From contig JAUYLJ010000016.1 in NCBI GenBank assembly GCA_030699685.1, positions 1 to 58,937 on the forward strand: DNA of 58,937 nucleotides, read 5' to 3'. Numbering within the stretch: the first letter of the stretch is position 1; every line of letters starts with the position of its first letter. The translations under genes were made by a program, and so were the position numbers. The notes beneath the pieces were generated by a model, which was not told the origin of the DNA, made no database searches, and saw only the letters and a list, made by a program, of their open reading frames with translations. The DNA is from a bacterium (GTDB lineage Bacteria; Patescibacteriota; Patescibacteriia; JAHIZJ01). Positions 54,535-58,937 of the stretch are shown here, piece by piece.

Positions 54535-56421
54535 ATGAAAGTTCGACGTGGCATAAAAATTTCCGGGCTCATCTTTCTGTTATTGATCGTTGGCGCGGGT
54601 ATTGGAGTGTTTATATTGCTTTGGTCACCGGAAGTGTCGGCTTTTGTCGTAACACAGTACGAAGATAAAGCCGACTTGGAGACTACCGCACTGATTCAAT
54701 TCAATAAGCCGGTCAATCGTCGCGCTTTGGTACCGAACATAGAGCCGTATGTCGACGGCTACTGGGAGTACGAGGAATCGTGGCTGGGAAAGCATTTTTT
54801 CTCGGCCCTTCGTTTCGTGCCGGCGCACACACTGGATCCCGCAACCACTTATCAGATCACGCTACAAGGGATAACTGATGCCTTGACTTGGTCTGACCCA
54901 AAGAACTACACCGCGGATTTCTCCACCCGATCTTTGCCGAACGTGGAGAGCGTTATTCCAGCTGATTCCATGGAAGATATCGCCCCCGACGAAGCGATTC
55001 TTGTCCGTTTGTCTGAACCGGCCGGGAATTATGTCCAGCTTTATGCCCGAGTCACTCCCGCCGCTGATTTTACTCTTTCACAAAACGGTGAGCTTGACGA
55101 GTTCGTTATTACGCCAAACGAAGGATGGCAGCAGGGGGTGGAATATCATCTCGTCCTGGATCGGGTGTTTACGTCGTACGACAGGGAGTCGGGTTCACTG
55201 ATGAAGCAAAGCGACGCGGTTGCGGTCTATGTTGGCACGTTTTCGGTGCTGCCGCCGCCCGAAGTCGAGGCATTCGCTCCAACCGGCGACCATGTCTCAG
55301 TGGGCGCTTCGTCGATTGTCACTTTTTCGGAAGCCATGGATGAGGCGAGCGTACAAGAAAATTTCAGCGTTAGCCCGGATCTGCCAGGCAATCTGACGCT
55401 AGAGGCTGAGGGCAAAGAACTGCGCTTTACCCCTGACGAAGCGTGGCCGTTTGAAACGGAGATCGCCATTATGGTCGCGGCTGGTACAAAAACGGCGGCC
55501 GGCGGGTTTTTGCCCGAAGACATTCAGCATAGTTTCAAAACAATCGGACCGGTTCACGTGCTGTATACGACACCTGGAGACGGAGCCAGCCGGATCGTGA
55601 CGAGTGCGAGTATCCGGATTGTCTTTGATCAGGCGGCGGACCATCAGTCTGCTCAGGCGGCCTTTACCATCCAGCCGGCTATGGAAGGGGACTTCAGCTG
55701 GGAAGACAACACGATGATTTTTACGCCTCGCTCTGATCTAGCCTACGACTCTGCGTATCTAGTGAATATTGCTGCAGGGATCATCAGTGTCGATGGGCAG
55801 GATTCCCAGGCAGAATATAATTTTGCTTTTTCAACCGCCCCCACCACTTTCATTTTAAACGTCGCTTCGGATCTTCAGGATCGCCCCTTGTCCTGCGAAG
55901 CGGCCGCCCTGAAGATGGCTTTAGCGAACAAAGGCGTGGCGGTGACGGAGAGTCAGATCATGGAACACGTCGGATATACGGAACCTTCGCAGAGGTCGAA
56001 CGGCGTCTGGGGAAATCCGCACATTGGATTTGTTGGTAACATTGACGGGACGCAAAACACGACCGGCTACGGCGTCTACTGGGAGCCGATCGCCCGTGCC
56101 GGTAACAATTGGCGGCCAAGTGAGGCATTCACCGGGTGGAATGTGACGCAATTAGCTCAGGAAGTTGAGGCGGGGAACGCCGTGGTGGTGTGGGGCGTGT
56201 ATGGTTCGGGATACCAAGATTCCTGGACGACGCCTGATGGAGGTAGTGTCTATGCCTGGAAGGGTGAACACACCCGCACGGTGATTGGTTTCGTCGGCTC
56301 CGTCGAAAACCCCGAACGCATTATTCTGAACGATCCATATGCCGGTCAGGTTTCTTGGACTCGCGCGCAGTTTGAACAGAACTGGGGCATCTTTGGTAAC
56401 GCGGGAGTAGTGGTGCGCTAA
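54535..56421 (+). CDS. C39-like cysteine peptidase with Big_5 Ig-like repeats, membrane anchored
   Basis: N-terminal TM; P......F.E.MD-type Ig repeats; Q...LSCEAA, EH..TVIG and NDP catalytic pattern; TATAAT ends 6 nt before ATG 54535 (likely leaderless). Confidence 0.85.
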   Translation: MKVRRGIKISGLIFLLLIVGAGIGVFILLWSPEVSAFVVTQYEDKADLETTALIQFNKPVNRRALVPNIEPYVDGYWEYEESWLGKHFFSALRFVPAHTLDPATTYQITLQGITDALTWSDPKNYTADFSTRSLPNVESVIPADSMEDIAPDEAILVRLSEPAGNYVQLYARVTPAADFTLSQNGELDEFVITPNEGWQQGVEYHLVLDRVFTSYDRESGSLMKQSDAVAVYVGTFSVLPPPEVEAFAPTGDHVSVGASSIVTFSEAMDEASVQENFSVSPDLPGNLTLEAEGKELRFTPDEAWPFETEIAIMVAAGTKTAAGGFLPEDIQHSFKTIGPVHVLYTTPGDGASRIVTSASIRIVFDQAADHQSAQAAFTIQPAMEGDFSWEDNTMIFTPRSDLAYDSAYLVNIAAGIISVDGQDSQAEYNFAFSTAPTTFILNVASDLQDRPLSCEAAALKMALANKGVAVTESQIMEHVGYTEPSQRSNGVWGNPHIGFVGNIDGTQNTTGYGVYWEPIARAGNNWRPSEAFTGWNVTQLAQEVEAGNAVVVWGVYGSGYQDSWTTPDGGSVYAWKGEHTRTVIGFVGSVENPERIILNDPYAGQVSWTRAQFEQNWGIFGNAGVVVR

Positions 56422-58062: not shown

Positions 58063-58209
58063 AACTCTTTCCTTCCAGGTTCGAGGATTGGCACTTCCAG
58101 GCGGGAAATTGTGAGAGGACATTTGATCTAGACCTACGACTCTACCCGAAAAGTGCTGACGCGTCAATACGCCGGAAATTGACAAGAGGCAGGAATACAT
58201 TATTATTCC

Positions 58210-58355
58210 TCCTAGTAACTTCAGGCTGCCGTCTCAATGGCGTTCCGGTAGAGACGGCAGCGTAGTGCTAGCCGGAACGTCAACCAGAGTTCTGCGCTTG
58301 GCTGGCGCAGCGCCCCGTTTCATAAGTCTCTGAGGCTGAAAAGGCGGGGTTTTTT
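58210..58355 (+). ncRNA. Candidate pseudoknotted small RNA of unknown family
   Basis: Upstream TTGACA(58179)-16 nt-TATTAT; 11-bp stem plus 12-bp loop pairing; downstream hairpin; intrinsic terminator. Confidence 0.55.
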
Positions 58356-58501
58356 ATTCATCCACTTTGAGTTGGCCGGCAGTCCAGAAGGAGGATTGAC
58401 AGAAACAGTTTTCTCGTGTACAAACACTTGCAGCCAACATCATGTGAGCAATCGATCCTTGAAAATTAAATCAAGCGTTTACTCAGGAAAGGGGCTTTAC
58501 C

Positions 58502-58937
58502 GTGTTTAATCGGCAAATGCTTGAAAAGCAGCTGACTTGGACGGGCTGGCCGTCCTTTGCCGTCATGTTTATCGCGGGCAGCGCCGCGATTTTGTCTGCG
58601 CTCATCCCCGATCTGCACACGCTGACCTTTGAGCTGAATTTTCCGAAGCGGATCGTCTGCCATCGTCACGCGGCGGACACTGAATTCGTGCTTGGCTGTG
58701 CCGTCGAAGAGTTGCGGAAAATTGTTCCGACGCCGGTGGAGTATTTCATCATTGAAGAAGGTTGGACGCTGAATGACTACGTGGCCAGGACCCGGCATCT
58801 TTGGGAAACATACCGGAGAGGAGAGATTCCCGCGCTTCCGGAGGTGAATCCTGACAAACTGGAGAGGATCGAACTCACCTGGTTCCAGGGACAGGGGTTA
58901 GTCATCGGCTATGCGTACAGCGACATGCTCAATTCAG
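58502..58937 (+). CDS. Hypothetical membrane-anchored protein, truncated by the window end
   Basis: GTG 58502 after AGGAAAGGGG; frame open to the window end (VFNRQMLEKQLTWTGWPSFAVMFIAG...); promoter TTGACA(58396)-17-TACAAA. Confidence 0.7.
   Translation, partial: MFNRQMLEKQLTWTGWPSFAVMFIAGSAAILSALIPDLHTLTFELNFPKRIVCHRHAADTEFVLGCAVEELRKIVPTPVEYFIIEEGWTLNDYVARTRHLWETYRRGEIPALPEVNPDKLERIELTWFQGQGLVIGYAYSDMLNS

Follow-up and report, generated by a model that had tools for sequence, protein, structure and literature searches.

The intergenic stretch 58179-58355 of the window (the whole 58,937-nt piece of DNA analysed here) carries on its + strand what we read as a lineage-specific transcription unit for a free-standing structured small RNA of about 142 nt. 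This reading is our first choice, and we give it a probability of roughly 45%. A near-consensus sigma-70 promoter at 58179-58206 would fire at about 58213-58215, and RNA polymerase would make some 142 nt without a translatable frame before it stops at a strong terminator at 58312-58355. The product would be a stable small RNA of four parts: a 12-nt single-stranded 5' end, a very stable hairpin of 11 bp, a middle domain and the hairpin of the terminator. Of these, the middle domain would adopt a nested hairpin (58265-58308) or, less likely, pair through its segment 58271-58282 with the first hairpin's loop. Our best guess is that the RNA acts as such bacterial RNAs usually do, as a free regulator that pairs with a partner or titrates it.

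The window is the whole of contig C55 in a genome of 1.15 Mb (97% complete, 70 contigs), and the listed relatives of this genome all have sizes of 0.7-1.4 Mb. According to crude ORF calls about 88% of the genome is coding and about 12% is intergenic. Among the sequencing runs listed as containing the DNA of the window there are two groundwater metagenome DNA runs of one study and no RNA run, and the contigs of both DNA runs are identical to it wherever they overlap, which means zero strain variation. The candidate unit sits in a gap of 439 bp between a lipoprotein-like gene on the - strand and a + strand gene with its start codon, GTG, at 58502. The nearest + strand gene upstream of the unit ends at 56421, and two - strand genes lie in between. 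Further upstream a Pfam domain search revealed unremarkable chromosomal genes with envelope and housekeeping functions (an O-antigen ligase domain, a GT4 glycosyltransferase, a flippase, a SpoIID domain, a Na/H exchanger, QueA, and Big_5 plus a C39-like peptidase). The Pfam domains of the neighbouring proteins gave no sign of a phage or mobile element in the neighbourhood of the unit. A mobile element, a phage, a DGR, a retron, ToxI, an IS110 bridge RNA and a guide RNA were also considered and rejected, because the unit is present as a single copy in the genome, has no tandem repeats and has no neighbour with a fitting Pfam family.

Promoter and terminator signals

The predicted sigma-70-type promoter (58179-58206, + strand) comprises a -35 box TTGACA at 58179-58184, a 16-nt spacer and a -10 box TATTAT at 58201-58206, and agrees with the consensus at 11 of 12 positions. 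When the same matching rule was applied to the whole genome with the crude ORF calls, 34 of the 11/12 matches were intergenic and 26 coding, which corresponds to a 9.5-fold higher intergenic density. For the 12/12 matches the numbers are 7 and 1 (50.7-fold higher). In this census the site at 58179 itself was counted as coding, solely due to an over-long frame of the upstream gene that reaches 58200 and is probably an artefact. The sigma-70 consensus appears to be used by this genome, and its intergenic enrichment indicates that strong matches outside genes probably work as promoters. Near-consensus hexamers, a spacer within the range of 16-18 nt and a genome with the consensus in use are all found for this site. 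We take the signals in the sequence and their genome-wide use as shown, and infer transcription itself, the ends of the RNA and any function.

The predicted intrinsic terminator (58312-58355, + strand) consists of a bulged stem-loop at 58312-58350 with the core CCCCG/CGGGG, followed by T6 at 58350-58355. It was calculated at -17.6 kcal/mol (our own genome scan gave -17.5) and is found in both the MFE and the centroid structure. It therefore has the features of an intrinsic terminator, namely a G+C-rich stable stem-loop directly before a U-tract on the predicted transcribed strand, and it is strand-specific, as no T-run follows the stem-loop on the - strand. The stock scan did not call it because the loop limit of that scan is 8 nt. 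The distance from the end of the promoter to the end of the terminator is 151 nt on the same strand. The first-pass annotation had described a unit bounded by a promoter and a terminator, and both of these signals were recovered on the + strand (the 11/12 match; the -17.6 kcal/mol stem-loop with T6).

No + strand protein gene ends nearby, so that the terminator closes no protein gene. It should consequently be either the end of a short transcript from 58179 or an attenuator before 58502. Between the terminator and GTG 58502 there is a weak second promoter-like site (58396-58424, + strand; TTGACA-17-TACAAA). The next gene had been credited with its own promoter at 58396; the two boxes are indeed present, but the final T of the -10 box is missing and for this reason the site was not called by the promoter scan.

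The predicted fold and the proposed second helix

The predicted transcript extends over about 142 nt (58213-58355, + strand), its start being placed 7-9 nt past the -10 box and its end in the T-tract. Its minimum free energy is -63.1 kcal/mol (z = -3.18), and none of 200 shuffled sequences folds as well on the + strand. The energetics of the fold are in this respect demonstrated. The first hairpin (58225-58261, + strand) has a perfect 11-bp stem (58225-58235/58251-58261) and a 15-nt loop, AAUGGCGUUCCGGUA. This stem, already pointed out in the first-pass annotation, was found again as 100% complementary arms in the repeat search; it contributes -23.2 kcal/mol alone and all of its pairs have a probability of 1.0. 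Perfect hairpins of at least 11 bp occur 76 times in the genome if nested versions are included (about 40 are distinct), compared to about 5 calculated for random sequence. This genome-wide excess indicates that the first hairpin is probably no accident.

Between promoter and terminator the + strand contains no ORF of 30 aa or more, in agreement with the earlier statement that no meaningful ORF is present. Two small + strand frames were noted in the unit, one of 28 aa beginning with a TTG in the -35 box and one of 22 aa beginning with GTG (58265-58333), and by eye neither is preceded by a Shine-Dalgarno sequence. The least probable of all readings considered here takes the unit either for a small-protein gene, based on the 22-aa frame, or for a protein-binding palindrome that acts at the DNA level on divergent promoters. 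As DNA, the arms of the first hairpin do form a perfect palindrome, located 12 nt past the predicted start site. However, the centres of its half-sites lie 26 bp apart, an unusual spacing for a dimeric regulator, and no further copy of the palindrome was found in the genome. The small-protein version was rejected since the 22-aa frame lacks a Shine-Dalgarno sequence and has its start within the structure and its stop in the terminator loop.

The loop of the first hairpin includes a segment (58238-58249) that can form 12 consecutive pairs with 58271-58282 on the + strand. This complementarity had been reported before and is confirmed in the sequence: an 8-bp Watson-Crick core is accompanied by two further Watson-Crick pairs and by two G-U pairs, which exist on the + strand alone. 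The energy of the duplex is -20.4 kcal/mol. The first-pass annotation had taken the two segments for the second helix of a functional pseudoknotted or two-state RNA and had named a ribozyme, a nuclease-resistant RNA, a switch and an antitoxin as possible identities. Given the hairpin, a run of at least 12 pairs within 100 nt on either side was found in 139 of 20,000 dinucleotide shuffles (P = 0.007; G-U pairs allowed, either 100-nt flank counted). A comparison was also made with 232 hairpins of this genome, counted strand-specifically, with stems of at least 8 bp and loops of 13-17 nt. Among them the longest run is 9 pairs in 21 cases, 10 in 9, 11 in 4 and 12 in 1, and the helix proposed here ranks first of the 232. 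The tail of 21, 9 and 4 is smooth, though, and predicts about one run of 12, so that genome-wide the helix looks ordinary.

The 3' strand of the proposed helix is shared with the 5' arm of the nested hairpin (58265-58308, + strand), which has a 9-bp outer stem (58265-58273/58300-58308) and an inner stem GAAC/GUUC, and the two structures are therefore mutually exclusive. The nested hairpin belongs to the MFE structure with pair probabilities of 0.94-0.99 for the outer and 0.64 for the inner stem, and the bases of 58271-58282 pair within it at probabilities of 0.64-0.98. Two additional elements had been proposed to complete the pseudoknot, a closing helix AACTT/GAGTT (58217-58221/58287-58291) and a hairpin CTGCGC/GCGCAG (58292-58297/58305-58310), both on the + strand. 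The complementary sequences exist, but in the nested ensemble both elements have a probability of 0.0, because the nested hairpin dominates (0.94-0.99).

The energies nevertheless permit the second helix, as the nested fold of -63.1 kcal/mol has to be compared with -49.0 for the alternative plus -20.4 for the duplex, before any pseudoknot penalty. According to the nascent folds the 3' strand of the helix is transcribed ahead of the 3' arm of the nested hairpin, and the helix could accordingly form first. A two-state RNA is thus energetically possible, but it is not indicated. H-type pseudoknot RNAs such as the preQ1, SAM-II and fluoride riboswitches and the pistol ribozyme have a second helix of about 3-7 bp, adequate loops and conserved nucleotides. 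The proposed fold has the H-type topology in common with them (5' arm of stem 1, 5' strand of stem 2, 3' arm of stem 1, linker, 3' strand of stem 2). It differs from them in a second helix of 12 bp, which would have to be spanned by linkers of 2 nt and 1 nt from a 15-nt loop closed by the 11-bp stem, and their Rfam models are unmatched at E <= 10. Judged from H-type geometry rather than computed, the full helix would be strained or topologically hindered, and no more than some of its pairs could form alongside an intact 11-bp stem.

With a complementarity that looks no better than chance genome-wide, a nested rival hairpin at 0.98 and such short linkers, the pseudoknot is not supported. Moreover, no homologue could be found that would provide covariation, neither a ribozyme nor a riboswitch family matched, the repeat search returned no tandem repeats, and the downstream protein was matched by no Pfam family, be it of a toxin or of any other kind. 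Altogether we regard a functional pseudoknotted or two-state RNA as very unlikely.

We also looked for pairings that compete with the terminator. Nascent and constrained folds revealed no antiterminator and no strong partner for either terminator arm; also with the 3' arm blocked, the 5' arm gains no strong partner upstream. The mutually exclusive terminator and antiterminator pairings that characterize an attenuating riboswitch are absent from these folds, which speaks for constitutive termination rather than a classic riboswitch attenuator. For the suggested two-state switch this means that the energies allow it, while neither of its states touches the terminator. A more far-reaching version, to which we assign an even smaller chance than to the pseudoknot model as such, would be a genuine two-state regulator private to one ultra-small groundwater lineage. 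The loop of the first hairpin would capture 58271-58282 cotranscriptionally in an unusually long pseudoknot, and this state would later resolve to the nested hairpin or be locked by a ligand or protein. The switch would alter the stability of the RNA or the availability of a seed through which the orphan envelope genes next to it are controlled.

Searches for families, homologues and targets

A search of 2.9 kb with the 4227 models of Rfam 15, with lax filters and E <= 10, gave four matches in all and no relevant family. Two of the four overlap the unit, mir-885 on the - strand (16.9 bits versus 66) and poplar-1 (13.4 versus 110.5). At gathering scores, only 16S rRNA and the c-di-GMP-II-GAG riboswitch were identified in the whole window, both of them elsewhere; the riboswitch aptamer (RF03169, 25437-25543, - strand) scores 40.4 bits, just over the gathering score of 40. 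The view of the first-pass annotation that the RNA belongs to no recognised family was thereby strengthened.

The search for homologues that had been proposed as a check was carried out by BLAST, with a covariance model and by pattern scans, and found none. BLAST against 60 relatives and the own genome (E <= 0.1) gave matches in 6 of the 61 genomes, the own one included. Each of the five foreign matches covers a fragment of only 17-28 query positions (E 0.0013-0.093), and we regard them as chance. The covariance model was built from the single sequence (100 nt, with the first hairpin plus the CTGCGC hairpin) and recovered itself alone, both in 151 genomes of the class and, at E <= 1, in 7 genomes of the family, the own genome being included in each set. 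The phage and plasmid collections yielded no match with blastn in distant mode.

A scan for the two strands of the proposed second helix gave at least 119 stretches in the genome_contigs collection, for which 80 loci were fetched, and 25 loci in metagenome_contigs. These matches are scattered and mostly G+C-rich chance matches. The covariance model matched three of the 80 and three of the 25 loci at E <= 1, all with 15 bits or less, and one of these matches (L043) lies inside a 432-aa ORF and was read as chance. None of the 105 fetched loci reproduces the interleaved 11-bp stem. The best flanking stem has 10 pairs, versus 11 in the window, and belongs to L142 (74% G+C, 9.6 bits); stems of 8 pairs flank the pattern in three loci, the identical sequences L135 and L154 as well as L037. 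As no homologue was found in the collections searched, there is neither support from covariation nor a sign of purifying selection.

The predicted RNA was also compared with 1040 translation-start regions for base-pairing targets. The best duplex (-59.1) falls within the best values of 15 shuffled RNAs (-50.2 to -60.6), and no target stands above this background. One apparent target at -54.8 was discarded, since it is the RNA's own antisense, resulting from the mis-called start of the upstream ORF.

Free-standing bacterial sRNAs are transcribed from their own sigma-70 promoter, have a length of 50-300 nt and end in an intrinsic terminator that serves as 3' hairpin. The unit resembles them in its promoter, its ORF-free structured body of about 142 nt, the terminator hairpin with U-tract and its intergenic position between divergent or tandem genes. 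In contrast to them it has no conserved seed, no target above background and no homologue in the collections searched, and its host is a groundwater bacterium with a reduced genome of 1.15 Mb.

Antitoxins of the ToxI type (type III) are composed of tandem direct repeats, and the gene downstream of them encodes an endoribonuclease of the ToxN/AbiQ type. As in ToxI loci, the unit combines a promoter-proximal non-coding RNA with a terminator, behind which a same-strand protein gene follows. Unlike those loci it contains no tandem repeats, and the downstream protein, which has no Pfam family, shows a membrane-like stretch in its N-terminal part. Neither of the features of a type III toxin-antitoxin system, tandem repeats and a ToxN/AbiQ protein, is found at this locus. 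A ribozyme, a nuclease-resistant RNA or an antitoxin, as put forward in the first-pass annotation, thus finds no counterpart in Rfam at E <= 10, in tandem repeats or in the Pfam families of the downstream protein.

SRP RNA and 6S RNA were rejected as well, as RF00169, RF01854 and RF00013 have no match anywhere in the genome. SRP and 6S RNAs each fold as one long hairpin, whereas the unit is predicted to form three separate hairpins. It was observed in this connection that the signal recognition particle pathway was not found in the genome: there is no SRP RNA (RF00169/RF01854), no Ffh M domain (PF02978), no SRP54 GTPase (PF00448) and no ffh (TIGR00959), so that no SRP RNA is to be expected. 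For ftsY there are matches at the level of the P-loop only (best 18.8 bits versus a cut-off of 260.7), and SecY is present with 347.8 bits. RF00169, RF01854 and PF02978 are each absent from 21 genomes, the own one and 20 relatives of the class, and PF02978 from all of 201 genomes sampled across the phylum. The controls for these searches matched 12/14, 9/14 and 14/14 model genomes. An excerpt of PMC10768705 names SRP genes with the prefix APY09_, and their organism is ambiguous in that excerpt.

Flanking genes and comparable modules in the genome

The - strand gene upstream of the unit encodes a lipoprotein-like protein of 249 aa. Its probable start is ATG 58062, which is preceded by the Shine-Dalgarno sequence GGAAGGAAAGAG and followed by a signal-peptide-like N-terminus with a cysteine (MNRCMIFSLTILAHLVFFAGC). 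Among 620 scored candidates from a library of 5.8 billion proteins this protein matched itself alone. A promoter for the gene is predicted on the - strand (TTGACG-17-TAGAGT, 58167-58139). A 14-nt inverted repeat with 86% complementarity connects its -10 region (58137-58150) with the loop and 3' arm of the first hairpin (58243-58256), which is probably due to chance.

The + strand gene downstream starts at GTG 58502, 147 nt past the T-tract, and is truncated by the end of the contig. The remaining fragment (58502-58936, + strand; 145 aa) found itself and three weak repeat matches among 1.84 billion representatives. It contains a hydrophobic stretch near the N-terminus that by eye looks like a membrane segment, and its residues 94-142 bear a weak resemblance to a unit that giant proteins of 2693-3100 aa contain in 6-7 copies (E 5.5e-06 and 9.9e-04). 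The fragment could be the first part of a large surface protein that is cut at the contig end. The contig of one of the metagenome runs extends 248 nt past the end of the window. Neither flanking gene could be found in 40 relatives, and neither protein contains a Pfam family.

These two orphan neighbours, not found in the 40 relatives examined, and an RNA that is unconserved in every collection searched would also fit a locus with no dedicated function. The signals would then lie in fast-evolving, recently acquired or decaying intergenic DNA and would lead at most to neutral pervasive transcription. We consider this unlikely, as an intergenic 11/12 promoter, a terminator of -17.6 kcal/mol 151 nt away from it and a perfect 11-bp stem come together here, each of which is enriched over chance in this compact genome.

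Including the unit, the genome contains nine ORF-poor promoter-terminator modules. The module C18:65188-65473 (+; positions 226-343 of locus L155) comprises a SAM (S-box, RF00162) aptamer, with 41.8 bits compared to a gathering score of 44.4 (E = 2e-7). No Rfam match at E <= 0.1 was obtained for C50:51515-51671 (-), C50:3617-3761 (+), C62:9207-9349 (-), C68:13971-14066 (-), C8:23208-23398 (+) and C9:3091-3236 (+). Four of these, the modules at C8:23208, C62:9207, C68:13971 and C50:3617, end no more than 62 nt before a start codon on the same strand, and the first three directly precede genes of 1434, 1149 and 2812 aa, respectively. The module C50:51515-51671 (-) is flanked by + strand genes according to the crude calls; with no nearby downstream gene on its own strand, it looks like a further free-standing small RNA. 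A repeated perfect palindrome with the core GCAGGCGAGGAT-4 nt-ATCCTCGCCTGC was observed at four sites at least (C8:2765-2794, C8:8285-8312, C21:3765-3800 and C63:65521-65552). The copy on C21 differs by one compensated base pair in each arm. The palindrome may represent a dispersed element of the REP type or a terminator common to several sites.

Most of the other modules lie directly ahead of genes, and the gene downstream of the unit shares its strand and is preceded by no more than a weak promoter, so that the RNA may be a terminated leader. According to this second, somewhat less likely reading, 58179 would be the main promoter of the membrane or surface protein gene at 58502, most transcripts would stop at the terminator, some signal (a protein, a ligand or an RNA) would permit read-through, and the RNA would be the by-product of attenuation. 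It is consistent with the same-strand position of the gene 147 nt after the T-tract, with the missing last T in the -10 box of its own, uncalled promoter-like site, and with the eight other modules, among which there are one SAM riboswitch leader and four more within 62 nt of a same-strand start. Like the SAM leader at C18:65188-65473, the unit has a promoter, a structured ORF-free RNA and a terminator before a same-strand gene. Unlike it, the unit has no aptamer family, no antiterminator and a gap of 147 nt with a second promoter-like site. Against this reading, no alternative pairing rivals the terminator in folds of the full-length or the nascent RNA, the distance to the start codon is larger than in the other modules, and no riboswitch or leader family was matched at E <= 10. 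As the downstream protein is an orphan without Pfam family, no ligand can be guessed.

The first-pass annotation had spoken of an independent structured RNA of about 140 nt. The structured RNA is in line with the ORF-free, signal-bounded unit and its z of -3.18, while its independence is qualified by the possible role as a leader. A free small RNA nevertheless remains the preferred reading. It is favoured by the 11/12 promoter, by a + strand terminator that ends no protein gene, by the absence of an ORF of 30 aa or more, by the fold (z = -3.18) without antiterminator, and by the 147-nt gap to the start codon with its second promoter-like site. The apparently free-standing module C50:51515-51671 (-) offers a precedent in the same genome. 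These points have to be weighed against the lack of a homologue in the collections searched and of a target above the shuffled background in the 1040 start regions.

Being a single unconserved locus with no inferable target, the unit adds to the annotation but no new principle. A useful by-product is that a simple scan for a consensus promoter followed by a terminator isolates a handful of ORF-free modules in this genome, a SAM riboswitch included. RNA regulation in bacteria of the candidate-phyla-radiation type is almost unstudied. If it is transcribed, the RNA would join a very small number of candidate small RNAs described for such reduced genomes.
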